Of a DNA stretch of 64,000 nt, positions 3,053 to 28,109 are shown in pieces. Under the pieces are notes generated by a model. The model saw nothing but the letters and a program-made list of their open reading frames with translations. It did no database searches and was not told the origin of the DNA. The stretch is from the NCBI GenBank assembly GCA_965237415.1, contig CBDEFM010000002.1:1856001-1920000 (forward strand), read 5' to 3'. Source of the stretch: Alphaproteobacteria bacterium (GTDB lineage Bacteria > Pseudomonadota > Alphaproteobacteria > UBA828). The position numbers and the translations under genes are program-made. Position 1 is the stretch's first letter; every line of letters begins with the position of its first letter.

Positions 3053-3364
3053 ATGCATCTCACTGTACGGGAAGAGGAACGTATTCAGATCTGGGCCGCC
3101 GCCGAGATGGCGCGGCGGCGCCTCGAGCGCGGCGTCAAGCTGAACTACCCCGAGGCGATCGCGCTGATCTGCGACGAGCTCCTGGAGCGGGCGCGCGAGG
3201 GCAGCATCCCGATGCTGACCGACTTGATGGAATACGGCGCCACGATCCTGAAGCGGGACGACGTGATGACCGGCGTGCCCGAGATGATGAAGGTGGTGCA
3301 GGTCGAGGCGCTCTTCCCGGACGGGACGAAGCTCGTCACGGTCATGAACCCGATCCGCGAATAG
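3053..3364 (+). CDS. ureA: Urease subunit gamma
   Basis: MHLTVRE..., [26 protein letters not shown] motifs; GGGAGG RBS upstream. Confidence 0.95.
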
Positions 3365-3389
3365 CGCGGGCCACGCGAGGAGAAGGCCG

Positions 3390-3896
3390 ATGGCCGAGAG
3401 GAAATGGAGCCCGCCGCCGCTGCCCGAGTCGGTCGTGCCCGACGAGGCCTTCGACGTGGGCGAGCCGGAGAGGTGCGGGGCGATCGACTTCGCCGACGGC
3501 GATATCGAGATCAACGTCGGGCGGCCCTCGATCGAGATCGTCATGGTCAACACCGGCGACCGGCCGATCCAGATCGGCGCCCACTACCACCTCGCCGAGT
3601 GCAACAAGGCAATGGCCTTCGACCGCGCGGCGGCGTTCGGCATGCGCCTCGACGTCCCGAGCGGCAGCGCGGTGCGCTTCGAGCCAGGCCAGAGCCGCAA
3701 GGTGCGGATCACCGGCTACGTCGGGCGCCAGGTCGCCTACGGCATGAACAATATGACCAACGGCTCGGTCCGCTCCGGCATCATCAAGGAGCAGACGATG
3801 CGCCGTCTCAAGGCCGAGGGCTTTTGCTTCGAGGGCGAGCGCTATCGGGTCGAGACGCCGCCGGACGAGAGGTTCGGCGGCAAAGACGGCTACTGA
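3390..3896 (+). CDS. ureB: Urease subunit beta with N- and C-terminal extensions
   Basis: NTGDRPIQIGAHYH, FDRAAAFGMRLDVPSGSAVRFEPG motifs; AGGAG RBS. Confidence 0.93.
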   Translation: MAERKWSPPPLPESVVPDEAFDVGEPERCGAIDFADGDIEINVGRPSIEIVMVNTGDRPIQIGAHYHLAECNKAMAFDRAAAFGMRLDVPSGSAVRFEPGQSRKVRITGYVGRQVAYGMNNMTNGSVRSGIIKEQTMRRLKAEGFCFEGERYRVETPPDERFGGKDGY

Positions 3897-3932
3897 CGCG
3901 AGGCACGCGAATGCTGAACCGGCGCCGGCCGC

Positions 3933-3968
3933 GCCAGGAGCGGGGCCGGGAGCAGGGCCAGGAGCAGG
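3933..3968 (+). repeat. 3 x 12-bp imperfect tandem repeat (gccaggagcggg / gccgggagcagg / gccaggagcagg) just upstream of ureC
   Basis: Read directly; each unit contains GGAG. Confidence 0.8.
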
Positions 3969-3978
3969 GAACCAGAGC

Positions 3979-5685
3979 ATGAGCACGAAGATCGCCCGCC
4001 CGGACTACGCCGCGCAGTACGGGCCGACCACCGGGGACAAGATCCACCTCGCCGACACCGGCCTCGTGGCGGAAATCGAGCACGATTACACGACCTACGG
4101 CGACGAGCTGGTCTTCGGCGGCGGCAAGACCATCCGCGACGGCATGGGCCAGGCGTCGAAGTGGAAGCAGAGCGACGGCGGGCTCGACATGGTGATCACG
4201 AACGCCGTGATCATCGACCCGATCCTGGGCGTCGTGAAGGGCGACATCGGCGTGCTGGATGGCGAGATCGTCGGCGTCGGCAAGGCGGGCAACCCGGACA
4301 CCATGAACATCACGCCGGGGCTCATCGTCTCGCCCAACACCGACATCCTCTCGGTGGAGGGAATGATCTGCACGCCGGGCTTCGTCGACATCCACCCCCA
4401 CTTCGATTCCGTGCAGCAGCTCTACGAGTATCAGAACGCGGGCTTCACCACGGTGATCGGCGGCGGCTCGGGGCCGAAGACGGTGGGCATCGAGTGCCCC
4501 GGCGTCTTCAACATCCAGCGCATGCTGGAGGCGATGGCGGACATTCCGCTCAACTTCGGCAACTTCGGCAAGGGCAACGCGGCGACGCCGGGCTCGCTGG
4601 TCGAGCAGATCCTGGCCGGCGCCACGGGGCTCAAGATCCACGAGGACTGGTCGTCCTCGCCCGCCGCCATCGAGACCACGATGGAGCTCGCGGACGAATA
4701 CGACTTCCAGGTCCAGATCCACGCCGACACGCTGAACGAGACCGGCTACTACGAGGACACGATCGCGGCGATCAACGGCCGCGTCATGCACATTTATCAC
4801 TGTGAGGGGGCGGGCGGGGGCAACGCGCCTGACATGATGCGGGTCTGCGGCGAGCCCAACCTGCTGCCGAGCTCGACCAACCCGACCAACCCGTTCTCGA
4901 TCAACACGTACGACGAAGAGATCGACATGTTGATCACCTGCCACAACCTGAACAAGAGCGTGCCGACGGACATCGCCTTCATTCAGGGCCGGGCCAGGGC
5001 GGAGACCATGCGGGCGGAGGACGTGCTGCACGACATGGGGGCGATCAGCATGATCGGCTCCGACAGCCAGGGTGTAGGCCGCGCGGCGGAGAGCGCGCAG
5101 CGCTCCTTCCAGCTTGCGGCGGTGAACAAGGTGCGCTTCGGGCGTCTGTCTGAGGACGGTTCGGGCAACGACAACTTCAGGATCAAACGCTATCTCGCCA
5201 AGGTCACGATCAACCCATCGATCTGCTTCGGCGTCGATTCCTATGTGGGCTCGATCACGCCGGGCAAGCTTGCGGATCTGGTGTTCTGGCGGCCCGAGTT
5301 CTTCATCGCGAAGCCCGAGGTGACGCTGAAGGGCGGCTTCATCTCGCACGCGGTCATGGGCGATCCGGCGGGCTCGCTGATGACCGGCCAGCCGCTCAAG
5401 TACCGCCCGCAATACGGCTCCCTCGGCGTCAATCCGAAGCGGACCTGCTACTCCTTCGTGACCAAGGCAGCGATCGACAATGGCCTCGAGGACGTGCTCG
5501 AGACCCAGCAGCTCAAGCCTGTGAAGCGCTGCCGCACGATCTCCAAGCGCGACATGATCCACAACGACGCGCTGCCGGATATCGAGATCGACCCCGAGAC
5601 CTACAATGTCTACGTCGATGGCGAGCGCGTCACGGTGAAGCCGGCAAAGACCCTGCCCCTCACCCAGCTCTTTTACTTCCGATAG
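3979..5685 (+). CDS. ureC: Urease subunit alpha (divergent active-site pocket)
   Basis: YGPTTGD, FGGGKTIRDGMGQ, GKAGNPD, H139/H141, K219 (GLKIHEDW), H248, H274, C321-H322 and D362 (SDSQ) all present; 568 aa. Confidence 0.95.
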   Translation: MSTKIARPDYAAQYGPTTGDKIHLADTGLVAEIEHDYTTYGDELVFGGGKTIRDGMGQASKWKQSDGGLDMVITNAVIIDPILGVVKGDIGVLDGEIVGVGKAGNPDTMNITPGLIVSPNTDILSVEGMICTPGFVDIHPHFDSVQQLYEYQNAGFTTVIGGGSGPKTVGIECPGVFNIQRMLEAMADIPLNFGNFGKGNAATPGSLVEQILAGATGLKIHEDWSSSPAAIETTMELADEYDFQVQIHADTLNETGYYEDTIAAINGRVMHIYHCEGAGGGNAPDMMRVCGEPNLLPSSTNPTNPFSINTYDEEIDMLITCHNLNKSVPTDIAFIQGRARAETMRAEDVLHDMGAISMIGSDSQGVGRAAESAQRSFQLAAVNKVRFGRLSEDGSGNDNFRIKRYLAKVTINPSICFGVDSYVGSITPGKLADLVFWRPEFFIAKPEVTLKGGFISHAVMGDPAGSLMTGQPLKYRPQYGSLGVNPKRTCYSFVTKAAIDNGLEDVLETQQLKPVKRCRTISKRDMIHNDALPDIEIDPETYNVYVDGERVTVKPAKTLPLTQLFYFR

Positions 5686-5709
5686 GCGGCGGCGGGCGCG
5701 ACAGTACGC

Positions 5710-6183
5710 ATGGCAGTCGTCACCGCGGTCCTCGGCACCGTCGACAGTCTGCGCGATCGGATCGAGAGCGAGGATCCGGTCCTGCTCAACTCGGAGGAGC
5801 GCGCCAGCGCCCATCTCGTGGGGCGCTCAGCAGGGGGCCGTGCTGTCCGCATCTCGCTGCCGCGCGGCACCGAGATCAACGACGGCGATGTGCTGGCGTT
5901 AGACGGCACCACGGCGCTGGTGGCGCGCGCGGCACCGGAGGCGCTCTACGTCGTCAGCCCCGACGATGCCTACACCTGGGGCGTCGCGGGCTATCAGCTC
6001 GGCAATCTGCACCGGCCCGTCCGCTTCACCGATGAGGGCATGCTGACGCCGGCCGACCCCATGGTGGCTGATCTGCTCACGCGCCTCGACATCGCCTTCG
6101 AGGAGCGCACGATTCCCTTCGTCGGCAGGCGCTACGGCGCCCACGGCGCCCATCACCACCACGACCATCACCATGACCGCTGA
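5710..6183 (+). CDS. ureE: Urease accessory protein UreE
   Basis: YQLGNLH metal site, LPRGTEINDGDVL, His-rich C-terminal tail. Confidence 0.9.
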   Translation: MAVVTAVLGTVDSLRDRIESEDPVLLNSEERASAHLVGRSAGGRAVRISLPRGTEINDGDVLALDGTTALVARAAPEALYVVSPDDAYTWGVAGYQLGNLHRPVRFTDEGMLTPADPMVADLLTRLDIAFEERTIPFVGRRYGAHGAHHHHDHHHDR

Positions 6184-6871
6184 CGGTCCCGACCGGCTCC
6201 TCTACCTGCTGCAGGTCGCGAACGCCTCGTTCCCGACCGGCGCGTTCAACCATTCTTACGGCTTCGAGACCTGGATCGACTCAGGCGCCCTCGACGACGG
6301 CGCGCGCTTCGAGAGCGCGTGCCGGGACTGGCTCCGCTATTGCGCCGTGCCGACGGACGGAGCCGCGGTCGCGCACGCCCACCGTCGCGCCGCCGCAAGC
6401 GATCTCGACGCCCTCGTGGACCTCGACCGCATCGTCGGCGCGCTCAAGCTGAGCCGGGAGGCGCGCGAGGCCTCGTTCAAGACCGGGCGCGCGCTGCTCG
6501 GCGCCTATCGCGACATCTTCTCGACCGAGTCCCTTGCGCCCTTTGCCGCGGCGGTGCGCGACGGGCGCTCTGAGGGGCATCAGGCCGTGGTCTTCGGCGC
6601 CGCGGCGGAAGCGCAGGGAATCGCCGCGGACGATGCGATCCTCGCCTTCCTCCACGCCGCGCTTTCCAACCTCGTCAGTGTCGGTGCGCGGCTGATCCCG
6701 CTCGGCCAGATCCAGAGCCAGCGGATCATCAGGGAGGCCTGGCCGCTGCTGACGCAGGGCACCGACGAGGCCTGCGCCATGGAGCTGGATGCGCTCGGCA
6801 GCGCCACCGCCGGCCTCGATATCGCCGGCATGCGGCACGAGCGCCTGCATACGCGGCTTTGTATGTCGTGA
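6173..6871 (+). CDS. ureF: Urease accessory protein UreF
   Basis: FPTGAFNHSYGFE, RLIPLGQ, C-terminal HERLHTRLCMS. Confidence 0.92.
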   Translation: MTADGPDRLLYLLQVANASFPTGAFNHSYGFETWIDSGALDDGARFESACRDWLRYCAVPTDGAAVAHAHRRAAASDLDALVDLDRIVGALKLSREAREASFKTGRALLGAYRDIFSTESLAPFAAAVRDGRSEGHQAVVFGAAAEAQGIAADDAILAFLHAALSNLVSVGARLIPLGQIQSQRIIREAWPLLTQGTDEACAMELDALGSATAGLDIAGMRHERLHTRLCMS

Positions 6872-6930
6872 GCCTCTGCTCACGCGGTATTCAGGTCGTG
6901 AGCTCCTGCTCACGCGGATTTATGTCGTGA
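6851..6930. repeat. About 2.6 copies of a 30-31-bp unit spanning the ureF stop; two copies carry the palindrome CGTGAGC-N4-GCTCACG
   Basis: Units acgcggctttgtatgtcgtgagcctctgctc / acgcggtattcaggtcgtgagctcctgctc / acgcggatttatgtcgtga. Confidence 0.85.
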
Positions 6931-6966
6931 TACGGTAAGATCGGAGCAATCGGGGAGATTTTGGTC

Positions 6967-7611
6967 ATGCGCAGGCCGGTCAGGATCGGCATCGGCGGGC
7001 CGGTGGGGTCGGGCAAGACGGCGCTGCTGGTGTCGCTCTGCCGCAGCATGGGGCGGGACCATTCGCTGGCCGCCATCACCAACGACATCTACACCAAGGA
7101 AGACGCCGAGTTCGTGATCAAGTCGGGCGCGATTGCGCCGGACCGCGTGGCCGGTGTCGAGACCGGCGGCTGCCCGCACACCGCCATCCGCGAGGATGTC
7201 TCGATGAACGCCCATGCCATCGAGGAGATGGCGGCGCTGCATCCCGACCTCGACATCGTCTTCGTCGAGAGCGGGGGCGACAATCTGGCTGCGACCTTCA
7301 GCCCGGAGCTGGTGGACAGCTACGTCTACGTGATCGACGTGGCCGAGGGCGACAAGATCCCGCGCAAGGGGGGGCCCGCCATCACCAAGTCGCCGCTGCT
7401 GGTCATCAACAAGATCGACCTCGCGCCCTTCGTCGGCGCCGACCTGGGTGTGATGGAGCGGGATTCGAAGAAGATGCGGGGCGAGCGGCCCTTCCTCTTC
7501 ACCAACCTGCGCGCGGGCGAGGGGCTGGGCGAGGTGATCGCCTGGATCGAGCGCGACGTTCTCCTGATGGAAGGCCACGGTGGAGCCGAGCGTCGCGCCC
7601 ATACAGCCTGA
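6967..7611 (+). CDS. ureG: Urease accessory GTPase UreG
   Basis: GPVGSGKT P-loop, [22 protein letters not shown]. Confidence 0.96.
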
Positions 7612-8449
7612 TCCCCAATGGATCGTCGGTAAGTACGCGCTGATGAACGTCCGCGCGCTGAGCCGGCGCGGGCGCACGGAGATCGACCCGCTCTGCTGGC
7701 GCATTCCCTTCCAGTGGCAGGGCTATCACTACCAGGATCACGACGACCAGCCCTTCATGCTGCTGGTGAACAGCGGCGGCGGCTTCGTCGAGGGCGATGT
7801 CGCGCACTTCCACGGCGTGCTGGAGCCCGGCACGCGCGCCCTCTTCACTACCACGGCATCGAGCAAGTTCTACAAGTGCCCGGGCGGCGCCGTGTCGCGC
7901 GAGATCGTCGATCTCCATGTCGGCGAAGACGCGCTTCTGGAGTTCTGTCCGGACGAGGCGATCCCCTTCGCCCGCAGCCGGGCGCATCGGATCAACCGGA
8001 TCGACATGGCGCCGTCGTCCCGGCTCTTCGCCACCGATATGATTTCGGCCGGGCGTGTGCACTACGGCGCGGGCGAGATCTTCCGCTTCGACCATCTGAT
8101 CTCCGAGTTCCGCATCACCATCGGCGGCCGCCTGGCCGCACTCGACCGCCTGGTTGCGACCGCGCCCGAGACCATCGCCGCGCTCGAGCGGCTGTGGCTG
8201 GGGCGGCTGCACATGGCGACGGCCTTTGCTTATGCACCGGTTCTCGCGCCCGGCGTCGAGGACGGCGTTCACGAGGCCATCGACGGTGTGGACGGCACCG
8301 AGGCGGGCGTCACCCGCATCGGCAACCTGGTGATCGTCCGTATCCTGAGCCACGAGACGTGGCAGGCCCACGAGGCGCTCTTCAACGCGTGGACCGCGCT
8401 CCGCCCTGCCATCGCAGGCAAGAGCGCGCGCCCGATACGCAAGTGCTAG
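7580..8449 (+). CDS. ureD: Urease accessory protein UreD
   Basis: [41 protein letters not shown]; position after ureG; GTG start approximate. Confidence 0.85.
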
Positions 8450-8472
8450 CGACAGGCTGAACGGGAACCCTC

Positions 8473-9201
8473 ATGGGCGGCGTGCTCGTTCTCGGACTCC
8501 TGGTCGGCATGCGCCATGCGCTGGAGGCGGACCATGTCGCAGCGATTGCGGCGCTCACGCAACGGAGCCGCGGCTTCCGCAGCGCCCTTCGCCTCGGCGC
8601 GGCGTGGGGTATCGGGCATACGCTGACCCTCTTCGCCGCCGGCACCATCGTGCTCTCGCTGGATGGGGTCATGCCCGAGCAGATCGCGCGCATCTTCGAG
8701 TTCGCCGTCGGCATCATGCTGGTTCTGCTCGGCGCCGATCTGCTCCGGCGTCTGATCGCGGCACGCGTTCACGTTCACGTCCATCGCCACGGCGATGGCA
8801 CGACCCACTTCCACGCGCACTCCCACGCCGGCGAGGCGGACCACACGTCATCCCGCCACGACCACGTGCATGTGCGCGGCCTGCCCGCGCGGGCGCTGGC
8901 GGTGGGGCTAATGCACGGCCTCGCGGGGTCGGCGGCGTTGATCCTGCTCACGGTGGGGCAGATCGACTCGTTCTTCTGGGCACTGGCCTATCTCGCGCTC
9001 TTCGGCATCGGCTCGATGATCGGCATGGCCGCGCTCTCCGTCGTCATCGCCATCCCGTTGCAGCGGGTGGCGCGGAGCCTCTCATGGGCGCACAACGCGC
9101 TGGGCGCGGCCATAGGGCTCGGGACGATCGGGCTTGGCGCCTGGGTTTCCTACCGGATCGGCGTCGTCGAAGGGCTGACGCTGACCGGCCTCGCCTCATA
9201 G
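8473..9201 (+). CDS. UreH-type nickel/cobalt permease
   Basis: GMRHALEADH (HX4DH), WGIGH, His-rich loop, GLMHGLAGSAAL; multiple hydrophobic helices; last gene of the ure operon. Confidence 0.85.
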   Translation: MGGVLVLGLLVGMRHALEADHVAAIAALTQRSRGFRSALRLGAAWGIGHTLTLFAAGTIVLSLDGVMPEQIARIFEFAVGIMLVLLGADLLRRLIAARVHVHVHRHGDGTTHFHAHSHAGEADHTSSRHDHVHVRGLPARALAVGLMHGLAGSAALILLTVGQIDSFFWALAYLALFGIGSMIGMAALSVVIAIPLQRVARSLSWAHNALGAAIGLGTIGLGAWVSYRIGVVEGLTLTGLAS

Positions 9202-9250
9202 CGGCTGTGGGCCGATTGACTGCCGGCTCCTGCACTATGTCTCGAAGCGC

Positions 9251-11568: not shown

Positions 11569-11727
11569 CGCCGGCTTAGCCCAGGGCGCGTCGAGGCGCG
11601 AGCATCCGCGCCTGCGGCGTCTCCTGGCGTTCGTGGCCGAACGAGGCAGCCTTTCCATGTCGGCCCCCCAGTGTGCGTCGGCCCGCAAATTGCGCTATCG
11701 AGAGGCCGGAAGCACGAGGTGCCACGC

Positions 11728-13614
11728 ATGACCGATATGCCCGAGAGCAGTGAGACGGGGCAGGCGACCGGGTCGACACCTCCGTCCAACAGGGTCTTCC
11801 CGAGCCCCTTCGATCTACCCACGCCCGATGGCGCAGAAGGCTGGGAAGAACTCTATCCCTATTACTGCCTGATCAGCGACGAGCGTCGCGAGATGGAGGA
11901 GGGAAAGTTCTGGTTCTTCGACGGGATGCACAACCCGGAACCGCTCTATCCCTTCGACACCATCATGACCGAGAACTGGTGGGTGGCTGCCAGTCAGATG
12001 GCGAGCCGCGTGTGGCCCATTCCCGTTGCCATGGGCATCGATCAGCGCCTGGTCAACGGCTACATCTATGTGAGCCCCAACAGCGTCACCGACCCCGACC
12101 AGATCGCCGCGCGCCACGAGCATTTTGCCCGCCGCGCCGGCCACTACTTCGAGAATTGGGACGAGATCTACGGCAACTGGGTCGAGAAGGCGAAGGATTG
12201 CATCGCGCGCTTGACGGAGATCGAGTTCCGTCCGCTACCGGAGTTGGAGCCGGAGGAGAACGTCTTCGGTCATCGCGGCGTCTACTCCTCGCACGACCTG
12301 CTCAGCGCCTATAACAGGCTGATCGAGAACATGCTCGAGATGGGGTCCTACCATTTCGAGATGCTGAACCTCGGCTACGGCGCCTACCTGACGTTCCGCG
12401 AATTCTGCCAGCAGGCGTTTCCGGGCATCACCGACCGGACGCTCACGCAAATCGTCTGCGGCATCGATAATCTATTGCTGCGGCCCGACGACAAGGTCCG
12501 TGAACTGGCCGCACTCGCGGTCGAGCGGAACCTCACCGACGTCGTACTCGGCCATCACGATCCCGACGCGATGCTGGCGGCCATGGCGAAGGCGCAGGGC
12601 GGGGCGGCGTGGCTGGAGGCGTTCGAGGAGGCGAAGGAGCCGTGGTTCCACTTCTCCACAGGCGTCGGCTACGACCATTCCGATCCGGTGTGGATCGACG
12701 ATCTGCGGCTGCCGTTCATTGCGCTCCGCGGCTATGTCGAGGCATTGCAGCGCGGCGAGGACATCCGCCGCCCGCTCGACCGCTTGCTGGCGGAGCGCAG
12801 CCGGGTGACGGAGGAATACCGCGCCCTTCTGCCCACCGATGAGGACCGCGAAGCGTTCGACGGCCTGCTGGCCCTCACCTGCAAGGTCTTCCCCTACGTC
12901 GAGGATCACAACTTCTACGTCGAGCACTGGCACCACACGATCTTCTGGTCGAAGGTGCGCGAGCTCGCGGACGTCTTCGTCGCGCACGACTTCTTCGACG
13001 ATCGCGAGGACTTCTTCTACCTGCACCGCCATGAGGTTTACGACGCGCTCTACGATCTGCTGATCGGCTGGGCCACGGGCACGCCGCCGAGAGGAGAAGT
13101 GTATTGGCGCCCAATCGTCGCGCGGCGACGGCGAATTCGCGACTCACTGAGAGCGTGGACGCCGCTGCCGGCGTTGGGAACGCCGCCGTCTGTCGTCACC
13201 GAGCCCATCACCATCATGCTGTGGGGGATCACCGAGAAGACGATCGAGGAGTGGCTCGGCGTCGATCCCGCCGCCAGCAGCGATGTCCTGCGCGGCGTGC
13301 CCGCCTCGGCCGGCAAGGTGAGAGGCCCGGCCCGCGTGATAACCCGGTCCGAGGATCTCTATGACATCGACGAGGGCGAGATCCTGGTGTGCCGGATTAC
13401 GGCGCCGAGCTGGGCGGCCGTCTTCTCCCGCATCGCCGCGGCGGTCTCCGATGTCGGCGGCATGATGGCGCACACCGCGATCATCTCGCGCGAGTACGGC
13501 CTCCCCGCGGTTGTGGGCGTGGGCTTCGCGACGGCAACGATTCGGACCGGCGATCGGGTCGAGGTCGACGGCAACGAGGGCATAGTAACGGTGCTGGAGA
13601 GAGCCGCGACGTGA
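11728..13614 (+). CDS. PEP-utilising enzyme with swivelling phospho-His domain and large substrate-binding domain (phenylphosphate synthase alpha / rifampin phosphotransferase-like)
   Basis: C-terminal GEILVCRITAPSW...GGMMAHTAIISREYGLPAVVG...GDRVEVDGNEGIV. Confidence 0.88.
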   Translation: MTDMPESSETGQATGSTPPSNRVFPSPFDLPTPDGAEGWEELYPYYCLISDERREMEEGKFWFFDGMHNPEPLYPFDTIMTENWWVAASQMASRVWPIPVAMGIDQRLVNGYIYVSPNSVTDPDQIAARHEHFARRAGHYFENWDEIYGNWVEKAKDCIARLTEIEFRPLPELEPEENVFGHRGVYSSHDLLSAYNRLIENMLEMGSYHFEMLNLGYGAYLTFREFCQQAFPGITDRTLTQIVCGIDNLLLRPDDKVRELAALAVERNLTDVVLGHHDPDAMLAAMAKAQGGAAWLEAFEEAKEPWFHFSTGVGYDHSDPVWIDDLRLPFIALRGYVEALQRGEDIRRPLDRLLAERSRVTEEYRALLPTDEDREAFDGLLALTCKVFPYVEDHNFYVEHWHHTIFWSKVRELADVFVAHDFFDDREDFFYLHRHEVYDALYDLLIGWATGTPPRGEVYWRPIVARRRRIRDSLRAWTPLPALGTPPSVVTEPITIMLWGITEKTIEEWLGVDPAASSDVLRGVPASAGKVRGPARVITRSEDLYDIDEGEILVCRITAPSWAAVFSRIAAAVSDVGGMMAHTAIISREYGLPAVVGVGFATATIRTGDRVEVDGNEGIVTVLERAAT

Positions 13615-14705
13615 CCGACGATCCCCTCATCCTCTGGCTGGACCACGGGAGCGCGCCGGGGAATCCGCTGCTTGGCGGAAAGTTCGCCAGTCTCGCCGAG
13701 ATGACGGCGGCCGGTTTCTCCGTTCCTCCGGGTTTCGGCGTGACCACCGCCGCCTATCGCGCCTTCATGGAGCACGCGGACCTGCGACCGGAGGCGGAGC
13801 GGGTGCGGGACGCGGCTCGCGATATGGCGGTCGTGGACATCGGGAAGGATCGGGCGCGGCTCGTGGAGGCCATTGGCGCGTCCCCCATGCCGGAGGCGCT
13901 GGAGACGGCGATCCGACACGGCTATCGCCTTCTCGAAGAGAGGACGAATCGAGCCGGTGTGCCGGTCGCCGTGCGCTCCAGCGGCGAGGCGGAAGACCTC
14001 GCCGATGCAAGCTTCGCCGGCCAGTACGATACCTATCTCTGGATCGTCGGCGCCGATGCGGTGCTCCGCCAAGTCAGGGCGTGCTGGGCCAGCATGTTCG
14101 GCGATACGGCCCTCACTTACCGGGCGGGCGGTGATGACGCCGCGGTCGCTGGCGGCGGCATCTGCGTCGGTATCCAGCAGATGGTGGAGGCGCGCGCCGC
14201 CGGCGTCATGTTCACCCTCGACCCGCTGAACGGCGACCGTTCGAAGATTGTCATGGAGGCGTGCTGGGGTCTCGGCGAGGGGGTGGTGAAAGGCGACGTG
14301 ACACCGAGCCGGTTCACGATCGACAAGGTGACGTTGGAGATCGTCAAACGGGATGTCGTTCCTCAATCGGAGGAGTACCGCTTCGATCCCGCCTCGAGCG
14401 CGGTAAGGCTGATGCCGATCGCGCCCGAGCGGACACGCACGGCCTGCATCGAGGACGCCGAGGCGCTCGCGCTCGCGAAACTCGCGAAACAGATCGAGGG
14501 ACGGCGCGGCGCAGCGCAGGATATCGAATGGGCGATCGGCGCAGACGGCGATGTGCGCATCCTCCAGGTCCGGCCCGAAACGGTATGGAGCCAACGAGAG
14601 AGCGCGGGCCTCGTCTCCGAGAGCAGGACCGCCGTCGGACACGTGCTCGCACGGCTCTCGGGCGGCCGGGTGGCAGCGGCAGGCCCCGGACACCGAAACT
14701 CGTGA
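13611..14705 (+). CDS. PEP synthase/PPDK ATP-grasp N-terminal domain protein (phenylphosphate synthase beta-like)
   Basis: GGKFASL, VPPGF, VAVRSSGEAEDLADASFAGQYDT, AGVMFT, WGLGEGVVKG, QDIEWA, ILQVRPET; GTGA overlap with the upstream stop. Confidence 0.9.
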   Translation: MTDDPLILWLDHGSAPGNPLLGGKFASLAEMTAAGFSVPPGFGVTTAAYRAFMEHADLRPEAERVRDAARDMAVVDIGKDRARLVEAIGASPMPEALETAIRHGYRLLEERTNRAGVPVAVRSSGEAEDLADASFAGQYDTYLWIVGADAVLRQVRACWASMFGDTALTYRAGGDDAAVAGGGICVGIQQMVEARAAGVMFTLDPLNGDRSKIVMEACWGLGEGVVKGDVTPSRFTIDKVTLEIVKRDVVPQSEEYRFDPASSAVRLMPIAPERTRTACIEDAEALALAKLAKQIEGRRGAAQDIEWAIGADGDVRILQVRPETVWSQRESAGLVSESRTAVGHVLARLSGGRVAAAGPGHRNS

Positions 14706-15566
14706 AGAGCGCCGACTTCGCCTATCACCGCCCCGGCGACATCGCGGACGCCGTGCGCTGCCTGCAAGACTACGACGGCGGCGCCCGCATTCTGGCGGGC
14801 GGGCAGAGCTTGGTGCCGATGATGAACATGCGGCTCTGGCGACCCGAGGCGCTGATCGACATCAACGGGCTGACCGGCCTCGCCGGCGTGACGGGGCACG
14901 GGGACGAAACGCGGATCGGCGCGCTGGTCCGCTACACCACGCTGGAGTTCTCGCCGGTCGTCGCCGAGCGCCTTCCCTTGTTGCGGGCGATGGTGGCGTT
15001 TGTCGGCGATCGCCAGGTGCGCAATCGCGGCACGATTGGGGGCAGCCTGGTGCAGGGGGACCCGACGGGGGAAATGCCGCTGGGTTGTCTGGTCCTCGAC
15101 GCAACGGTCAGCGTCCTCGGGCCTTCCGGCGCGCGCAGCATCGCGATGGCTGACCTCTACGAGGGCGCCTACGCGGCCACGCTCGCACCCGACGAGCTGC
15201 TGACGGAGGTCCGCTTTCCCCCGGCATCCACCGCACTTCGCCTTTCGCGAGTGCTGCCGCAGACACAATGATTTTTGCGTGCTCTCGGTGGCTGCGGCGG
15301 GGCGAGTCTCGGACGTCGGCCGCTGGAGCGGGCTCCGCATCGGGCTCGGCGGGGTCAACGACACGCCCGTTCTGGCCGACGCCAGCATGGCATTGCTGGA
15401 GGGGAGCCGCCTCGACGACGCGGACATCGCGGCGGCAGGCGAGGCTGCGCGCGGCGCCATCGATCCGCCGGACGACATCCGGGGGTCGGCCGAATACCGC
15501 GCCCACCTCGTGCTGCTCTACGTCGCGCGCGTGCTGCGCGATTTGCGTACCTCGGCGCGCGACTGA
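14702..15566 (+). pseudogene. Xanthine dehydrogenase-family FAD-binding (medium) subunit with a +1 frameshift in the C5 run at 15218-15222
   Basis: LAGGQSLVPMMNMRL and VRNRGTIGGS lie in the first frame. FAFRECCRRHNDFCVLSVAA...DDIRGSAEYRAHL continues in the +1 frame. Confidence 0.85.
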
Positions 15567-15593
15567 CTTCGGCCGGGCGCGAGAGGTCGAGCG

Positions 15594-16100
15594 ATGAAGT
15601 TTCGCCACGAGTTCCGCGTGCGGGAGAGCAGCGACAAGGTCTGGCGCTTCTTCGAGAGTCCGCTGGACGTCGCGCGCTGCATCCCCGGCGTCGAAGCGGT
15701 GGAGCCGATCGAGGACGGCGATGACAGCTATTCCGTCCGCGCGACCCAGAAGCTGGGTCCCATGTCGGCGACCTTTCAGGCCAAGGTTCGCATCACCGAG
15801 CGCGTCCACGGAGAACGGATCGAATTCACCGCGACGGGCAAGGCGGTGCGCGGCGCGGTCGGCAACTTCAGGGCCCAGAACGCGGTCACGCTCATACCGG
15901 AAGGCGACGAAACCTGCGTCGCGGTGGAGGGCGAGGTCGCGCTGGCCGGCGTGCTCGGCACTGTCGGAAGCGCGGTGATCAACAAGCAGGCCGCAAAGAC
16001 GACCGCCGCGTTCGCCTGCAACCTGGAGCAAGCGCTATCGGCTGCGGGAGAGCCGCGCGCCGGATCCCAGTCGGAGGAGACCGTCGTTGAGCGGGAATGA
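15594..16100 (+). CDS. CoxG/SRPBCC family protein
   Basis: VWRFFESPLDVARCIPG, LGPMSATFQ, GVLGTVGSAVI; located between Mo-hydroxylase subunits. Confidence 0.85.
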   Translation: MKFRHEFRVRESSDKVWRFFESPLDVARCIPGVEAVEPIEDGDDSYSVRATQKLGPMSATFQAKVRITERVHGERIEFTATGKAVRGAVGNFRAQNAVTLIPEGDETCVAVEGEVALAGVLGTVGSAVINKQAAKTTAAFACNLEQALSAAGEPRAGSQSEETVVERE

Positions 16101-16596
16101 GCGCGCGATCAGCTTCCGGCTGAACGGAGACCCGGTGTCGGCGGACGCGCCCACCCGCATGCACGCGGCCGACTTCCTGCGCCATCGCCTGGGCTGGACC
16201 GGCACCCACGTCGGTTGCGAGCAGGGCGTCTGCGGCATGTGCACGATCCTGGTCGACGGCGCCGCGATCAAGTCCTGCTTGATGCTCGCGGTGCAGTTGG
16301 ACGGCGCGGACGTGCTAACGGTCGAATCCCTGGCCGAGGACGACCGCCTCAATGACGCGCAAGACGCCTTCAAGAGGCACCACGCGCTGCAATGCGGCTA
16401 CTGCACGCCCGGCTTCCTCATGGTGGCGGTGAGCCTGAAGGCCAGCGGGCGCACGCTCTCCCGCGCGGAGGTCCGGGAGGAGCTCGCCGGTGTCCTCTGC
16501 CGCTGCACCGGCTACGAGAACATCCTGCGTGCGGTGGAGGATTATCTGGGCGCGGACCGCGTCAAGGAGCCGCCCGATGGCGAGGTATCGCGGTGA
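16087..16596 (+). CDS. Mo-hydroxylase 2Fe-2S (small) subunit
   Basis: GCEQGVCGMCT...SC and QCGYCTPG...LCRCTGY; TTG start with GGAGG RBS. Confidence 0.93.
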   Translation: MSGNERAISFRLNGDPVSADAPTRMHAADFLRHRLGWTGTHVGCEQGVCGMCTILVDGAAIKSCLMLAVQLDGADVLTVESLAEDDRLNDAQDAFKRHHALQCGYCTPGFLMVAVSLKASGRTLSRAEVREELAGVLCRCTGYENILRAVEDYLGADRVKEPPDGEVSR

Positions 16597-18965
16597 GCAG
16601 GTCGCGCCAGAGCCTGATCGGCGCAGCCCTCACGCGCAAGGAGGACGATCGTCTGCTGCGGGGCGACGGTCTCTTCACCGATGACGTGCACCTCGCCCAC
16701 CAGCTTGAGATGGCGGTCGGCCGCTGCCCTTTCCCCCGCGCCGCGATTGGCGCGATCGACGTGGCGCAAGCCCGCGCCGTGCCCGGCGTCCGTCACATTT
16801 TGACGGGTGCCGACGTGCGGGCCGCGAGCGGGCCGCTGACGGTTCTGAGGCCGGTGCCCGGCGCGCCGTTGCTGCCCTACTACGCGCTGGCGGCCGAGCA
16901 GGCGATCCACGAGGGCCAGCCGGTGGTGAGCGTGGTCGCGACGAGCCGCGCGATTGCAGAGGACGCGCTGGACCTCATCGACATCGACTACGAGCCGCTG
17001 CCGCATGTGACGGACACGCTGGGCGCGCTCGCCGACGACGCACCGGTTCTGCATCCCGAGACGCTGACGTCGAACCTGCTGGCGAGCAACGTGGACCGCG
17101 CGGGCGATCCGGAGGATCGCATGGTCGCCGCCGAGGTCGTCGTCGAGGGGCGCTTCCGTGTGAACCGGGTGAGCGCGCTCCCCATGGAGCCGCGCGGTAT
17201 CGTCGCCCATTGGCGGGCAGGCGCGCGCACGCTGGAGGTCCATGCCTCCACCCAGACGCCGCACTTGATCCGGCAGCAGTTGGCGGAGTGCCTGCCGCTC
17301 GATGAGGGGTGCATTCGGGTCATCGCATCCGATGTGGGCGGCGGCTTCGGCATGAAACTCGGCCTCTATCCGGAGGACGTGCTGGCGGTGCTGCATGCGA
17401 TGGCGCTGCGACGACCGGTCAAGTGGATCGAAGACCGCCTGGAGTTCTTCCGCGCCAGCACCCATGCGCGCGAGGCCGTGCACGACGTCCAGATCGGTGC
17501 GGAGGCCGATGGTCGCATCGTCGCGATTACCAACCAGTACACCACCGACCTGGGCGCCTGGAACTCGACGTACGGCTCGGCGCAGCTCTCGAGCGTGGTC
17601 TTCACCGGCCCCTACAAGGTGGCCGATGCAGCCGTCGAGCGCCGCGTCGCGCTCACCAACAAGACCCCGATCGGGGCCTATCGCGGCTACGGTCAGCCGG
17701 AAGTCAATTTTGCGCTGGAGGTCCTCATCGACCGGCTGGCGCGCCGCCTGAAGATCGACCCGCTGGAACTGCGCCGGAAGAACATGTTGCGGCCGGAAGA
17801 TCTGCCCTGGACCACGCCGAGCCGGGCCGTCTACGACAGCGGCGACTATCTGAAGACCCTGGAGATGGCCGCCGAGGCCGTCGATTACGACGCGCATCGC
17901 GCCGGCCGCCGGGAAGACCGGGGCGAGGGGCGGTTGACGGGCATCGGCTTCGCCTCCTTCGTCGAGCGCACGGGTTATGCCAGCGCGCGCTTCCTCGCGG
18001 GCCGTGGCTCACGCTTCGGCGCCCACGAGAGCGTGATCCTGCGGGCGAACCGCTCCGGCGGCATCGACCTCTACACCGGCGTCTCGACCTTCGGCCAGGG
18101 GAGCGAGACGGCGTTCGCCCAGATCTGCGCCGAGGTCTTCGGCATCGACTACGAGGCGATCCACGTCCATGCCGGCGACAGCGGAGCATCGCCCCTCAAC
18201 ACCGGCGCCTTCGCCTCGCGCACCCTGATCGCGGCTGCCGGCGCCATCCGCGAGGCCGCGGACGCGCTCCGCAACAAGACCCTGCGCATCGCGGCCATGG
18301 TCCTGCAATCGACGCCGGAGGCGCTGGAGGTAAGCAGCCGCGCCGTCCGCGTCCGCGACGAGCCTGGGCGCACCGTCCCCCTCGCCGAGATCTTCACCCG
18401 GGCGATCATCGGGCAGGGTATTCCGGAGAGCGAGGAGCCGGGTCTCGACGCGACCGCGCACTTCGAGCCCTCGCACGCGGCGTTCTCGTTCGGGACCGCC
18501 GCCGCCGTCGTCTCGGTCGATCCCGAGAGCGGCGCGTTCGACGTGGAGCGCTTCGTCATGGCCCACGACTGCGGCGTCGCGGTCAACCCGCCCCTGGTGG
18601 AGGGCCAGGTGCGCGGCGGCCTGGTGCAGGGGCTCGGCGCGGCGCTGGCGGAGGAGCTTCGCTACGACGAGGGCACCGGCCAGCTCGTGAGCGGCAGCAT
18701 GCTGGATTACTTCGCGCCGACCATCATGGATGTCCCGCGCATCGACCTGGTGCACACGGAGGTTCCGTCCCCGGTCACGACCTTCGGGGTCCGTGGCGTC
18801 GGCGAGGTCGGCACGATCCCGCCGGCGGCAGCGGTCACCAACGCCGTCTGCGACGCGCTGGCGGACTTCGGCGTGGAATTCTCGGACCTGCCGCTGACCC
18901 CGGAGCGCGTCTGGCAGGCGCTGTCGCAGGCGAGGGACGCCCGCGCGGCCCGCGCGCCACGATGA
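16593..18965 (+). CDS. Xanthine dehydrogenase-family molybdopterin-binding (large) subunit
   Basis: RKEDDRLLRG, DVGGGFGMK, AYRGYGQPE, GQGSET, GAFASR, EGQVRGG, RGVGEVG. Confidence 0.95.
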   Translation: MSRSRQSLIGAALTRKEDDRLLRGDGLFTDDVHLAHQLEMAVGRCPFPRAAIGAIDVAQARAVPGVRHILTGADVRAASGPLTVLRPVPGAPLLPYYALAAEQAIHEGQPVVSVVATSRAIAEDALDLIDIDYEPLPHVTDTLGALADDAPVLHPETLTSNLLASNVDRAGDPEDRMVAAEVVVEGRFRVNRVSALPMEPRGIVAHWRAGARTLEVHASTQTPHLIRQQLAECLPLDEGCIRVIASDVGGGFGMKLGLYPEDVLAVLHAMALRRPVKWIEDRLEFFRASTHAREAVHDVQIGAEADGRIVAITNQYTTDLGAWNSTYGSAQLSSVVFTGPYKVADAAVERRVALTNKTPIGAYRGYGQPEVNFALEVLIDRLARRLKIDPLELRRKNMLRPEDLPWTTPSRAVYDSGDYLKTLEMAAEAVDYDAHRAGRREDRGEGRLTGIGFASFVERTGYASARFLAGRGSRFGAHESVILRANRSGGIDLYTGVSTFGQGSETAFAQICAEVFGIDYEAIHVHAGDSGASPLNTGAFASRTLIAAAGAIREAADALRNKTLRIAAMVLQSTPEALEVSSRAVRVRDEPGRTVPLAEIFTRAIIGQGIPESEEPGLDATAHFEPSHAAFSFGTAAAVVSVDPESGAFDVERFVMAHDCGVAVNPPLVEGQVRGGLVQGLGAALAEELRYDEGTGQLVSGSMLDYFAPTIMDVPRIDLVHTEVPSPVTTFGVRGVGEVGTIPPAAAVTNAVCDALADFGVEFSDLPLTPERVWQALSQARDARAARAPR

Positions 18966-18975
18966 GGTAGCTGAC

Positions 18976-19650
18976 ATGGATTATCCCGTCCGCGGCCGCT
19001 ATGCGAACGCTGCGCTCTCGCCGCTGGAAGACGCGGCCATGGCGTGGTTGGACGGCTTCTATCAGCTGGAGCATCTCATCGCGACCCGGATGTGGGCGAT
19101 CAAGATCTGCCCCGAAGCCTCGCCGGAAGTACAATTTGCAGCGCTGGTGCATGACGCCGAGCGGTTCTTTCCCGGCGGCCCCTCCAGCACGCCGAGCAAC
19201 GGCTTCGACGATCCGGATTATCTCTTCGCGCATTCCACCCGGTCGGCGGATATCGTCGAGGAATGGTTGCGCAACCGCTCGCCGGCGCCGCCTGAGAGCT
19301 TCATCCGGCGCGTGCGCCGGCTCATCCTGCGGCACGAAATCGGCGGCGGATGGGAGGCCGATTTCGTGCAAGCCGCGGATTCGCTCTCCTTCCTGGAGAC
19401 CCTGGATTGGATCACCGTCGATTGGGTGCGGAGCGGCCCTTACACCGTCGCCCAGGCGCGGGAGAAGCTGGACTTCACCGTCGAGCGCATCCGGCCTTCC
19501 ATCGCCGTCGCCGCGGCGCTCCCGCTCTACGAGAGCGCCGTGCGCGCCCTGGACGCCGCCGAAGACTGCACGATGGACTTGAAACGACGGCGCGCGTTGG
19601 CGAGCAGCCGATCGTTCCTGTTCGGACTGCCTGTCTCGAAGGCGGGATGA
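18976..19650 (+). CDS. HD-domain-like protein (DUF4202-like)
   Basis: EHL...AALVHDAER...AHSTRSA...ILRHE...AADSLSFLE gives an H...HD...H...D pattern; GAGG RBS directly after the large subunit. Confidence 0.6.
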   Translation: MDYPVRGRYANAALSPLEDAAMAWLDGFYQLEHLIATRMWAIKICPEASPEVQFAALVHDAERFFPGGPSSTPSNGFDDPDYLFAHSTRSADIVEEWLRNRSPAPPESFIRRVRRLILRHEIGGGWEADFVQAADSLSFLETLDWITVDWVRSGPYTVAQAREKLDFTVERIRPSIAVAAALPLYESAVRALDAAEDCTMDLKRRRALASSRSFLFGLPVSKAG

Positions 19651-19812
19651 AGGCGACCGGCCGGCTCATGCGCCAAGCCTAAGCGAACGCAGCTTCCCCC
19701 AAGTTCGCTCCCGCGCCGGCGCGGATCGTCCATCCTGAATTGCGTCAGGGGATCACACCCCTCGGTCTCGCCGCACGCCGTCAATGGAGGGGCACTGCGG
19801 CCCAAATTCATA

Positions 19813-19872
19813 TTGACAGGCAGTGCGACACCAGCGCATCGTTATCGAGATATCGAAATTGTTTTCGATATC
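19813..19872 (+). promoter_or_regulatory. Putative sigma70 promoter (TTGACA at 19813) followed by a perfect inverted repeat GATATCGAAA-N4-TTTCGATATC (19849-19872)
   Basis: Read directly. The -10 element is weak (CATCGT at 19837). It lies 70 bp upstream of the hydantoinase operon. Confidence 0.65.
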
Positions 19873-19941
19873 CGTAAGTTCGGGCTGCCGCGATAGACCA
19901 TCGACGGGAAGCCTAAAGGCCCGGCATCCGGAGGCAGCGCC

Positions 19942-21957: not shown

Positions 21958-23549
21958 ATGGCGCTATCGATCCGGTGACCCTGGAGGTGATCCGCCACGC
22001 CCTGACGGCGACGGCGGAGGAAATGTCGCTCGTGGTCATGCGCTCGGCGCGCTCGCCGCTGCTGCGCGAGGCGGGCGATCTCTCGTCCGCGCTCACCGAT
22101 GCAGACGGCCACCTCATCGCCCAGGGCCGCGACATCCCGATGCACATGGGGGTCATGAGCTTCACCGTCCGCGAGTTCCTGAAGCGGGTGCCCAAGGCAC
22201 AGCTGGAGCCCGGCGACGTATGGTTCCTCAATCTGCCGGAAGTCGGCGGCAACCACTTGCCCGACGTGAAGGCGATCCGGCCGATCTACGCGGAGGGTGA
22301 GATCGTCGCCTTCGCGGAAAGTCTCGCCCATTGGGCGGATATCGGCGGCGCCGTGCCCGGCAGCTATGTCGCCGGCGCCACGGACGCGTGGCAGGAGGGG
22401 CTCCGCATTCCGCCCTTCCGGCTCTTCACCGCAGCGGGCCCCGACCGCGAAAAGCTCGACATGATCTGCGCCAACGTGCGGGGCGCAGACGAGCGCGAGG
22501 GCGACATTCTGGCGCAGCTCGCAGCCAGCCGGGCCGCGGAGGAGCGCGTGCACCACATCGTCGCCGAGCATGGCAGGGAGACGGTGTTGGACGCCATCGC
22601 CGCGATCCACGACCGGGCCGAGGCGCAGATGCGGGCGGCGCTCGCGGCGATTCCCGACGGCACCTATAGGGGCGAGGACTGGCTCGACGACGATGCCGGC
22701 GGAGGCGGGCCGGTTGCCGTTCGCGTTCTGGTGACGATCGAAGGCGACCGGGCGCGCTTCGATTTTTCCGAGACCGACGACGCGGCGCGAGGGCCCTTGA
22801 ACACCACGCCCTTCATCGCCGCGGCGTCCGTCTTCTATGTGGTCAAGACCCTGTTCGGGCCCGACATCCAGCCGAGCGGCGGCTGCTACCGCCCGCTTGA
22901 GATCGTGACCCGTCCCGGCTCCCTGCTCGATCCGTCCCCCGAAAGCCCCGTGGTGGGCGGCAATCACGAAACCTCGCAACGGATCGCCGACGCCGTGTTC
23001 AAGGCCCTCGAAGCCACCGGGCCGGAGCGCATTTCCGCCGGCGGGCCGACTACGTCGGGGCTGGTGCTCTTCGGCGGACGACGGGCCGACGGCGCCTGGA
23101 CCACCCTCTACGAGGTCCATGGCGGCGGCGAGGGCGCGCGGCACGACCGCGACGGTGCGCCGGTGGTGCGCGTTCACATGTCCAACGTGATGAACACCCC
23201 GGCCGAGGTGGTGGAAGCCGAATACCCCATCCGTATCGAATGCCAGCGCCTGCGCCAGGGCTCGGGCGGCGCGGGCCGGCGGCAAGGTGGCGAAGGCCTG
23301 CACCGCGAGTATCGCGTGCTCACCGACGACATGTCGGTCACCTCCATGTTCGAGCGCCGTGTGGTGCCGCCCTACGGCCTGCAAGGCGGCGACGACGGTG
23401 CGCCCTTCCGGGTCACCATCGACCACGCGGACGGCCGCCGCTCGGTGATGCCGGGCAAGGCGAACCTCCGGCTCGGCACCGACGACGTGGTCATCGTCGA
23501 GAGCTGCGGCGGCGGCGGTTACGGCGAGCCGGAACCGACAGGCCAGTGA
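21954..23549 (+). CDS. Hydantoinase/oxoprolinase family subunit B
   Basis: IDPVTLEV, RSARSPLLRE, GGNHLPD, HWADIGGAVPGS, QEGLRIPP, NTPAEVVEAEYP, GGGGYG; ATGA overlap. Confidence 0.93.
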   Translation: MNGAIDPVTLEVIRHALTATAEEMSLVVMRSARSPLLREAGDLSSALTDADGHLIAQGRDIPMHMGVMSFTVREFLKRVPKAQLEPGDVWFLNLPEVGGNHLPDVKAIRPIYAEGEIVAFAESLAHWADIGGAVPGSYVAGATDAWQEGLRIPPFRLFTAAGPDREKLDMICANVRGADEREGDILAQLAASRAAEERVHHIVAEHGRETVLDAIAAIHDRAEAQMRAALAAIPDGTYRGEDWLDDDAGGGGPVAVRVLVTIEGDRARFDFSETDDAARGPLNTTPFIAAASVFYVVKTLFGPDIQPSGGCYRPLEIVTRPGSLLDPSPESPVVGGNHETSQRIADAVFKALEATGPERISAGGPTTSGLVLFGGRRADGAWTTLYEVHGGGEGARHDRDGAPVVRVHMSNVMNTPAEVVEAEYPIRIECQRLRQGSGGAGRRQGGEGLHREYRVLTDDMSVTSMFERRVVPPYGLQGGDDGAPFRVTIDHADGRRSVMPGKANLRLGTDDVVIVESCGGGGYGEPEPTGQ

Positions 23550-23582
23550 ACGGATGAACGACGCAAGCAAGGGAACGATGCA

Positions 23583-28089: not shown

Positions 28090-28109
28090 GAGACGGGGCG
28101 CCCTGAGCG

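Follow-up and report, generated by a model that had tools for sequence, protein, structure and literature searches.

Positions 3053-9201 of the DNA stretch analysed here (64,000 nucleotides of an alphaproteobacterial genome, hereafter the window) carry a urease operon whose catalytic subunit, UreC (P0003), has the nickel ligands of a urease and an altered surround to its substrate. The question raised by this locus is what such an enzyme hydrolyses. The initial annotation, made from the sequence letters, had proposed a nickel amidohydrolase acting on a substrate other than urea. As predicted from its genes, the operon is a complete and working nickel-urease-type system (UreABC, UreEFGD and a nickel permease), and its UreC belongs to a clade, called here the N-clade, whose pocket-shaping residues changed along its stem and have stayed fixed since. 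The reading tentatively preferred here is that the enzyme is an active nickel amidohydrolase adapted to a small urea derivative, N-methylurea being the lead candidate; a genuine urease is nearly as likely.

Active site and clade of UreC

The residues listed in the initial annotation as metal ligands or catalytic groups (H139, H141, K219, H221, H248, H274, C321, H322, R338 and D362) were all present in UreC, as were D223 and G279. Residue numbers equal those of the Yersinia enterocolitica urease upstream of the active-site loop and the Yersinia numbers minus 3 downstream; after the loop they also equal the Sporosarcina pasteurii numbers minus one. The nickel centre, the carbamylated-Lys position, His221, the Asp223-His322-Arg338 triad and Gly279 have been kept, and since this dinickel and catalytic set is in place the enzyme should cleave a carbamoyl or amide C-N bond by the urease mechanism. 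UreC was matched by the Pfam models Urease_alpha and Amidohydro_1, and its score on the urease alpha model TIGR01792 (Table 1) was 170-280 bits below the 917-1030 bits of canonical UreCs from related genomes. With the ureases of Klebsiella aerogenes, S. pasteurii and Helicobacter pylori it has in common the three-domain architecture, the dinickel site with carbamylated Lys, the flap triad and maturation by UreDEFG; against those structures a canonical UreC (L080) scored 840-900 bits and the window UreC 606-624.

The variant motifs that had been reported, HFDSVQQ, GGGSGPKTVGIECPG, HAD, GGGNAPD, MLITCHNL and SDSQGVGR, were all located, and the loop shortening of 3 residues was borne out in alignment to the Yersinia urease, where it follows G-G-G-x-G-P. 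The loop thereby departs from the canonical pattern G-G-G-T-G-P-x-x-G-T-x-A-T-T-x-T-P-G and has Gly at the Ala position: Gly170 of GGGSGPKTVGIECPG is the equivalent of S. pasteurii Ala170 and is followed by Ile171 and Glu172. The canonical patterns S-D-S-Q-A-M, H-[TS]-D, G-G-G-H-A-P-D and H-x-I-[CSA]-P-Q, which hold in 42-43 of 43 canonical UreCs, are likewise absent from the window, their counterparts reading G-V, H-A-D, G-G-G-N-A-P-D and H-F-D-S-V-Q.

These changes were compared with published active-site descriptions. In the portion available of the Mazzei-Musiani-Ciurli review (PMC7433671), the carbonyls of Ala170 and Ala366 hold the Ni(2)-bound urea nitrogen, the distal nitrogen is held by Gly280 and Ala366, the C-beta of Ala366 touches an active-site water, and the flap is locked by Asp224-His323-Arg339; in the accessible part of a Yersinia cryo-EM preprint, Met369 (the Met after SDSQA) can reach the active site. 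In the window UreC both urea-contacting alanines are Gly, the adjacent Met is Val, the residue after the flap His is Asn, and the residues following two Ni-ligand histidines are also replaced. Judged by those portions of the two sources, the changed pocket positions match residues that contact urea or line the site, and nearly all the replacements are from a larger to a smaller side chain.

The N-clade was defined as the UreC clade with the window's signature, and 83 full-length representatives were compared with 43 canonical UreCs. Each of the Ni ligands H139, H141, K219, H248, H274 and D362 occurs in 83/83 rows. The signature residues are fixed or nearly so: D143 (83/83), G170 (83/83), I171 (83/83), E172 (82/83), A249 (81/83), N282 (73/83), N323 (83/83), G365 (82/83) and V366 (81/83). 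The canonical UreCs have I (43/43), A (42/43), T (43/43), T (43/43) and T or S (43/43) at positions 143, 170, 171, 172 and 249, and H (43/43), H (42/43), A (43/43) and M (43/43) at 282, 323, 365 and 366; the clade signature is missing from all of them save one Yersinia-like copy (L101), which has Gly170 and the CHN flap and 11 of 64 N-fixed divergent positions in common with the N-clade. In the flap the N-fixed changes are M319I, V320T, H323N, I328V, E336Q, S337G, I344M and A345R, six of them N-specific and two further ones N-fixed. The N-fixed divergent positions were concentrated near catalytic residues (23/79 near versus 41/283 far, odds ratio 2.4, p=0.004), as were the N-specific positions (14/79 versus 21/283, odds ratio 2.7, p=0.0095), where "near" means within five residues of a catalytic residue or in the loop, sequence distance being a proxy for three-dimensional proximity.

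The distinct clade for which the initial annotation had proposed to look in a UreC phylogeny was recovered. In a likelihood tree of 50 rows (quick IQ-TREE search, SH-aLRT support only) a canonical clade (support 98) was split from a sister short-loop superclade (94), and the window UreC was placed in the latter, outside the canonical clade. The N-clade and its intermediates group together with a support of 100 on a stem of 0.38 substitutions per site, and the branches within the group are short. The shorter loop, D143, Gly170 and Gly365 are traits of the whole superclade, and T249A, H282N, H323N, M366V, S337G, A345R and a Ser triplet after H-E-D-W, among others, are specific to the N-clade. 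The reported changes are concerted and clade-wide; the shortened loop, HFDS and SDSQG, however, are not peculiar to this protein, being common to the larger superclade, two further paralogues of this genome included. The other short-loop paralogues comprise an F-type with fused gamma-beta subunits and incomplete accessory sets, the second urease of fast-growing mycobacteria (a basal short-loop type), the metagenomic clade S61 and a cluster on the Paracoccus plasmid pTT13-3. They share with the N-clade the loop shorter by 3 residues, D143, Gly170, Gly365 and Urt-like neighbours scoring below threshold, but unlike it they keep T249, H282, H323 and M366. The nearest outgroup is S61 (61-63% identical), with a short loop but a canonical flap and second shell; the S61 comparison set (26 rows) held one mislabelled N-clade fragment (P0106).

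Among the best 120 database relatives of the window UreC, the first 94 (74-98% identical) carry the N signature or intermediates; a search of a representative library grouped all ureases in a few 50% clusters. N-clade members are spread over Alpha-, Beta- and Gammaproteobacteria and Actinobacteria, with hosts in Rhodospirillales, Rhodobacteraceae, Hyphomicrobiales, Burkholderiales, Thermoleophilia, Mycobacterium and Gemmatimonadaceae, and cultured carriers that include Hansschlegelia, Methylopila, Chelatococcus and Mesorhizobium strains. No N-clade member was found in a plasmid collection (0 of 164 UreC-bearing records at at least 60% identity). Literature searches aimed at such paralogues, covering articles without their supplements, returned no description of the N-clade; nor did they return a biochemically characterised short-loop paralogue or published data for any N-clade member. 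The N-clade is a distinct, horizontally mobile urease subfamily, apparently undescribed.

On the chromosome of Rhodobacteraceae bacterium QY30 (L055 6958-7779 and 14602-15423), where the N-clade gene is the sole UreC, two copies of one insertion sequence, seen as integrase-core open reading frames (ORFs) with identical domain scores, flank HupE-ureABCEFGD in a composite-transposon-like arrangement.

A genuine urease, that is, a second urea amidohydrolase lineage in which the substitutions adjust the kinetics (giving, for instance, a higher affinity for scarce urea), the pH optimum or the assembly of the enzyme, would retain the nickel ligands and catalytic residues in just this way. The contacts made by Ala170 and Ala366 are, in the portion of PMC7433671 available, backbone carbonyls, which Gly can supply too. 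The best solved match to the window UreC, the Y. enterocolitica urease (PDB 4Z42, 6YL3), is a verified urease and has the CHN flap, Gly at the Ala170 position, a long UreB and all the Ni ligands and catalytic residues. Of the changes listed in the initial annotation, Gly170 and the CHN flap are therefore not unique to the window enzyme, and alone these two do not exclude urea. The Yersinia enzyme differs from that of the window in its full-length loop, H-x-I-S-P-Q-Q, HTD, GGGHAPD and SDSQAMGR. Telling against a urease are the concerted replacement of positions invariant in 43/43 canonical UreCs and a metagenomic sub-branch (6/83; P0076, P0077, P0079, P0080, P0082 and P0087) in which the flap His is Phe, Asp223 is Asn and Cys321 is Val. 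In that sub-branch all Ni ligands and the remaining signature are kept and two members of the flap-lock triad, the equivalents of the flap His and Asp224 needed for urea turnover, are changed. Over the whole clade H322 is kept in 76/83 rows and D223 in 76/83, and the losses amount to 16/83 for C321 and 7/83 each for H322 and D223.

Transporter, paralogues and a possible methylamine link

Genomic context was counted in those 48 of 72 N-clade genomic loci with 8 kb or more of flanking sequence to either side. One particular Urt-like ABC transporter, consisting of an N-type substrate-binding protein (SBP) and permeases, lies within 8-10 kb of the operon in 32/48, a LuxR-family regulator with an autoinducer-binding domain in 26/48, HupE/UreJ in 13/48 and the permease type of the window in 4/48. 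The N-type SBP is 66-100% identical across classes. It scores below both urea-SBP cut-offs (340 versus 495 on TIGR03407, ~160 versus 493 on TIGR03669); a canonical neighbour SBP gave 554 bits, and canonical UrtA was found beside the N-clade operon in 0/48 loci. Among solved structures the N-type SBP is closest to urea-binding proteins, at 125-128 bits, AmiC reaching 70. If the enzyme is a urease, the transporter would be a divergent high-affinity urea importer, as its closeness to urea SBPs allows, and in the sister clade S61 the urease adjoins UrtB, UrtC and UrtE proteins scoring over their cut-offs; the absence of canonical UrtA and the two sub-threshold scores speak against that. In the part available of the SIMBAL paper, Urt-like systems beside amidases had already been noted as probably carrying amides.

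The 16 loci without the transporter belong to the window's close relatives, two other metagenome-assembled genomes (MAGs) and three actinobacterial loci, two of which, as annotated, have an SSF or MFS carrier in its place. No orthologue of the N-type SBP was found in the window's genome (best own match 34% identical), and the window holds no transporter beside the urease with an SBP over the TIGR03407 or TIGR03669 cut-off. The best match to the archaeal-type urea SBP in that genome, on contig C1, was rejected as an unrelated branched-chain-type transporter locus.

Preceding the N-clade operon, Mycobacterium sp. 141 and a Thermoleophilia MAG (L081 7471-9018, L056 6289-7650) carry a gene for an SSF symporter or for an MFS transporter. 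A CN-hydrolase is also encoded upstream in the Thermoleophilia locus, where an N,N-dimethylformamidase-beta-like gene follows 7 kb downstream.

In 51 N-clade genomes, many of them MAGs, at least two UreC-type genes were found in 44 and a canonical-range copy in 22, the classes being assigned by bit score with a motif check for the first eleven genomes only. Such coexistence points to a specialised paralogue and speaks against a plain urease, in whose case the paralogues would be differently regulated isozymes. In one Hansschlegelia genome the three UreC paralogues each have their own SBP subtype: the canonical UreC has a true UrtA (562 bits) at a distance of 8 kb, the F-type has SBPs of 317 and 343 bits nearby, and the N-clade copy adjoins its own SBP type. 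In an even sample of the window's class (401 genomes) 100 had UreC and 13 of these 100 had at least two; the N-clade was present in 3 genomes, all of the window's family.

The assembly that holds the window (two contigs, 96% complete) has three UreC genes, none canonical. The other two are short-loop and have fused gamma-beta subunits. The first (L004 7729-10875; C2 ~2550700-2553900) is accompanied by a UreF-like gene, a 441-aa amidohydrolase and an unknown 450-aa ORF. The second (L005 8247-11522; C2 ~2574200-2577500) has ureD as its only accessory gene, and its UreC reads H-W-L-S, K-I-H-E-D-Y and C-H-L-L. UreE occurs once in the genome, in the window, and UreG, UreD and UreF twice each, the second ureG at C2:3327013.

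A precedent for such coexistence is the fused-subunit "URE type 2" cluster of Paracoccus yeei, with which no ureolysis was seen once the type-1 ureC was disrupted (PMC11578231, section 3.9), a result that would weigh against a urease here if that cluster is short-loop; in the part of that article available, its authors speculate on other substrates or activators. Like the N-clade it is a second, divergent cluster coexisting with a functional canonical urease, and unlike the window operon it has fused gamma-beta subunits, another accessory-gene order and a plasmid location. In the portion available of a paper on M. smegmatis, no activity is assigned to the second urease.

The pTT13-3 cluster of P. 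yeei TT13 (L152 896-13395) is similar to "URE type 2"; it is short-loop and not N-clade. It is ordered AmiC-like binding protein, ANTAR regulator, nitrilase-family protein, ABC transporter, fused urease gamma-beta, UreC and ureG-D-E-F, its UreC has Ser in place of the flap Cys, and a 92.7% identical copy is present on Paracoccus versutus and P. ferrooxidans replicons.

A family model for GmaS (methylamine ligase) was over its cut-off in 49/51 N-clade genomes, against backgrounds of 64/401 in the class sample and 39/201 in Burkholderiales (16-19%); all 6 Burkholderiales N-carriers have GmaS. Within the class sample, by hand count, GmaS was present in 13/14 genomes bearing F or N types, 20/86 other UreC-bearing genomes and 31/301 without UreC. 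This contrast among related genomes is suggestive and is not a statistical test. GmaS starts the N-methylglutamate pathway, according to the part available of PMC7948447. In the short-loop relatives the association is physical. On two metagenomic contigs (L155 1-13289 and L157) the S61 urease stands in the order urtABC(D)E-amiE-mgsABC-like-gmaS-like-ureABC-ureD, all in one orientation, the mgs-like genes being GATase/GXGXG/glutamate-synthase-domain genes, for which we take mgsABC to be the appropriate names. The glutamine-synthetase-like protein encoded there matched "glutamate--methylamine ligase" in the PDB at 430 bits, Rhodovulum GmaS at 371 and true glutamine synthetases at no more than 242. 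F-type and S61 loci often lie beside aliphatic amidase and gmaS/mgs: in the flanks of 80 metagenomic loci amiE was found in 4/9 S61, 7/21 F-type, 0/12 N and 0/25 canonical loci, and gmaS in 4/9, 2/21, 0/12 and 0/25. On L155 and L157 a dihydropyrimidinase and a hydantoin racemase come after the S61 ureases.

The operon and its surroundings

The operon consists of eight co-directional genes, tightly spaced or overlapping, ordered ureA-B-C-E-F-G-D and followed by a membrane-protein gene (Table 1). All seven urease products were recognised by Pfam and NCBIfam, and UreD, UreE, UreF and UreG are all encoded within it.

Table 1. Features of the urease operon, in window coordinates
Feature	Position	Strand	Evidence
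ureA, urease gamma subunit, 103 aa	3053..3364	+	Pfam Urease_gamma 136 bits; TIGR00193 135.9 bits (cut-off 82.3)
ureB, urease beta subunit, 168 aa	3390..3896	+	Pfam Urease_beta over residues 30-125
ureC, urease alpha subunit of the N-clade, 568 aa	3979..5685	+	TIGR01792 746 bits (cut-off 680); PDB 4z42 633 bits
Shortened active-site loop GGGSGPKTVGIECPG, UreC residues 161-175	4459..4503	+	Alignments; Gly170, Ile171 and Glu172 inside
Mobile flap, UreC residues ~309-352, with C321, catalytic H322 and R338	4903..5034	+	Yersinia flap 312-355 (P0003 numbering plus 3)
ureE, nickel metallochaperone, His-rich C-terminal tail	5710..6183	+	Pfam UreE_C and UreE_N; tail seen in translation
ureF accessory protein, start overlapping ureE end	6173..6871	+	Pfam UreF 135.5 bits
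ureG, GTPase of urease maturation	6961..7611	+	TIGR00101 335 bits (cut-off 204)
ureD accessory protein, start overlapping ureG end	7580..8449	+	Pfam UreD 146.5 bits
Small NiCoT-like nickel/cobalt permease (putative), 242 aa	8473..9201	+	H-x4-D-H motif near N-terminus and His-rich loop (translation)

The gene order was kept in all complete clade loci among the 72, where the contig allows. The initial annotation had set it apart from the usual alphaproteobacterial DABCEFG; the canonical urease of an N-clade-bearing Mesorhizobium is ordered ureD-A-(hupE)-B-C-..-F-G. The Yersinia urease genes presumably have the window's order, ureABCEFGD. UreB is longer than a canonical UreB (101 aa, locus L154); its residues 1-29 and ~145-168 are unmatched, PDB matches span residues 30-145 only, and the extensions gave no match when compared with the C-terminal helix of Yersinia UreB. 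An ORF at 3404-3982 was rejected as an out-of-frame, Arg-rich artefact overlapping ureB.

The last gene of the operon had no Pfam match, weak N-terminal matches to NicT/HoxN (E ~5e-4) and 19 bits on TIGR00802 (cut-off 333); its neighbours in a protein language model were HoxN/HupN/NixA-family clusters (score 0.97), and H-x4-D-H in an early transmembrane segment is what we take to be the NiCoT (HoxN/NixA) signature. With profile scores below threshold, the motif and the language-model likeness point to a NiCoT-like nickel permease. A homologue of this type is present in 8/72 clade loci, with HupE/UreJ in its place in 17/72; the nickel permease is the variable part of the system. Use of another metal, as in Helicobacter mustelae, which has an iron urease, was rejected since UreE, UreG and nickel permeases are kept.

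A contig of a close relative from a metatranscriptome library joins window position 8453 to 9233 via 19 other letters, omitting the permease gene, which fits the patchy presence of that gene among related loci. Contigs from such libraries (three studies) matched ureA-C, ureE, ureG and ureD of close relatives at 90-99% identity, some bridging ureA-ureB-ureC and ureG-ureD, with DNA carry-over possible; in some runs parts of ureE/ureF and the permease gene were uncovered, which is uninformative on expression. Scanning the window and six clade loci for riboswitches and other RNAs gave nothing relevant; the only hits were tRNAs, an ALIL element and, inside a coding region, an echo of the H. pylori 5' ureB small RNA model.

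These features also bear on decay. A decaying or non-catalytic paralogue under relaxed selection might be expected to lose active-site residues, as C321, H322 or D223 have been lost in a few clade members; it is hardly credible for the window operon, where all eight reading frames are open and in order and stop codons overlap with starts. Across the 72 loci, moreover, UreC is 78-99% identical between phyla although UreE and UreF fall to ~40%, the signature residues are fixed, and the metatranscriptomic matches, weak evidence in view of possible carry-over, are to close relatives of the operon. The argument of the initial annotation that the changes are concerted and due to selection rather than decay was supported by the distinct clade, the fixed residues, the purifying selection and the full nickel maturation set.

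It had further been suggested that the substrate is an N-substituted urea, carbamate or amide released by neighbouring N-heterocycle pathways. Downstream of the operon the window does hold molybdenum (Mo)-hydroxylase subunits, a hydantoinase A homologue, a polysaccharide-deacetylase-family protein and phosphoenolpyruvate (PEP)-utilising enzymes, and three lineages, namely the window's relatives, L031 and L071, have hydantoinase-like genes no more than 10 kb from the operon. The flanking genes of the window were, however, not conserved across the clade, whose conserved neighbours are the transporter, the LuxR regulator and nickel permeases. The flanking FAD monooxygenase is common only to the window's near relatives and the MetE-like gene only to L006; the unknown 230-aa gene and the PEP-utilising genes had no match in other clade loci, the deacetylase had 27-29% matches in 3 loci, and the Mo-hydroxylases and hydantoinase are common to the nearest relatives only or to no other clade locus. 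A link to these pathways is accordingly judged very unlikely.

Divergent from ureA, on the minus strand at 517-2937, are the genes for the FAD-dependent monooxygenase and the MetE-like (Meth_synt_2) protein. Positions 11671-28871 hold a PEP-utilising enzyme pair, CoxG, two Mo-hydroxylase subunit sets, the hydantoinase A homologue, an SDR protein and an IclR regulator. The region resembles an island for the catabolism of heterocycles or aromatics and is not conserved beside the urease clade. Elsewhere in the genome (L153 13486-17054; C1 ~535500-539050) a DnaB-like helicase gene adjoins that of a 513-aa protein with an Acb2/Tad1 hairpin domain (35.7 bits), and this locus may be a prophage remnant with an anti-defence sponge-like gene.

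Candidate substrate and its implications

Specialisation for a small urea derivative is narrowly favoured on four grounds: the shift to smaller side chains in the pocket, the possession of a transporter and regulator of its own, the paralogy and the association with GmaS. The preferred physiological substrate would be a small urea derivative rather than urea, N-methylurea or another N-alkylurea being the lead candidate, which the enzyme would convert to alkylamine and carbamate; GmaS and the N-methylglutamate pathway would go on to assimilate the methylamine, and urea might still be hydrolysed as a secondary substrate. Import would fall, in most relatives, to the dedicated Urt-like ABC transporter and sensing of the substrate to a LuxR-solo regulator. 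In the window's genome, where transporter and regulator are missing, the nickel permease alone accompanies the operon. The sharper statement, that the N-clade and perhaps the whole short-loop superclade are nickel hydrolases for substituted ureas and amides and that the window enzyme is an N-methylurea (N-alkylurea) amidohydrolase delivering methylamine to GmaS, is considered unlikely as it stands.

Several observations weigh against specialisation and keep a true urease close behind it. The window protein retains every catalytic residue that urea hydrolysis requires; its score exceeds the cut-off of TIGR01792, which is an equivalog model for urease alpha; and to our knowledge every characterised member of the urease family is a urease. 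Gly170 and the CHN flap occur in the verified Yersinia enzyme, and both the nearest families and the nearest solved relatives of the linked transporter bind urea. The window's own genome has no canonical urease, and the N-clade gene is the only UreC-type gene in 7/51 genomes, one of them a complete chromosome. The link to GmaS is co-occurrence at genome level among related, non-independent genomes, many of them MAGs, and gmaS, mgs and amiE were found in the flanks of 0/72 genomic and 0/12 metagenomic N-clade loci. UreC classes across the 51 genomes follow bit scores and not motifs, the enrichment of changes near the active site uses sequence distance for proximity in space, and the pocket argument rests on alignment and published structures.

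Among nickel enzymes urease is the textbook case, and members of the short-loop superclade are at present all labelled plainly "urease subunit alpha". Across phyla, the N-clade keeps the metal centre, rewrites the shell that contacts the substrate and brings its own importer and regulator. If the enzyme is a true urease, residues treated as invariant elements of the pocket would be dispensable. If it serves another substrate, the N-clade would be a new specificity class with the first non-urea physiological substrate for an enzyme of the urease family, and counts of "ureC" in genomes and metagenomes as a measure of urea-use potential would need to be reread; should that substrate be N-methylurea, the clade would provide a new entry point into methylated-amine cycling.

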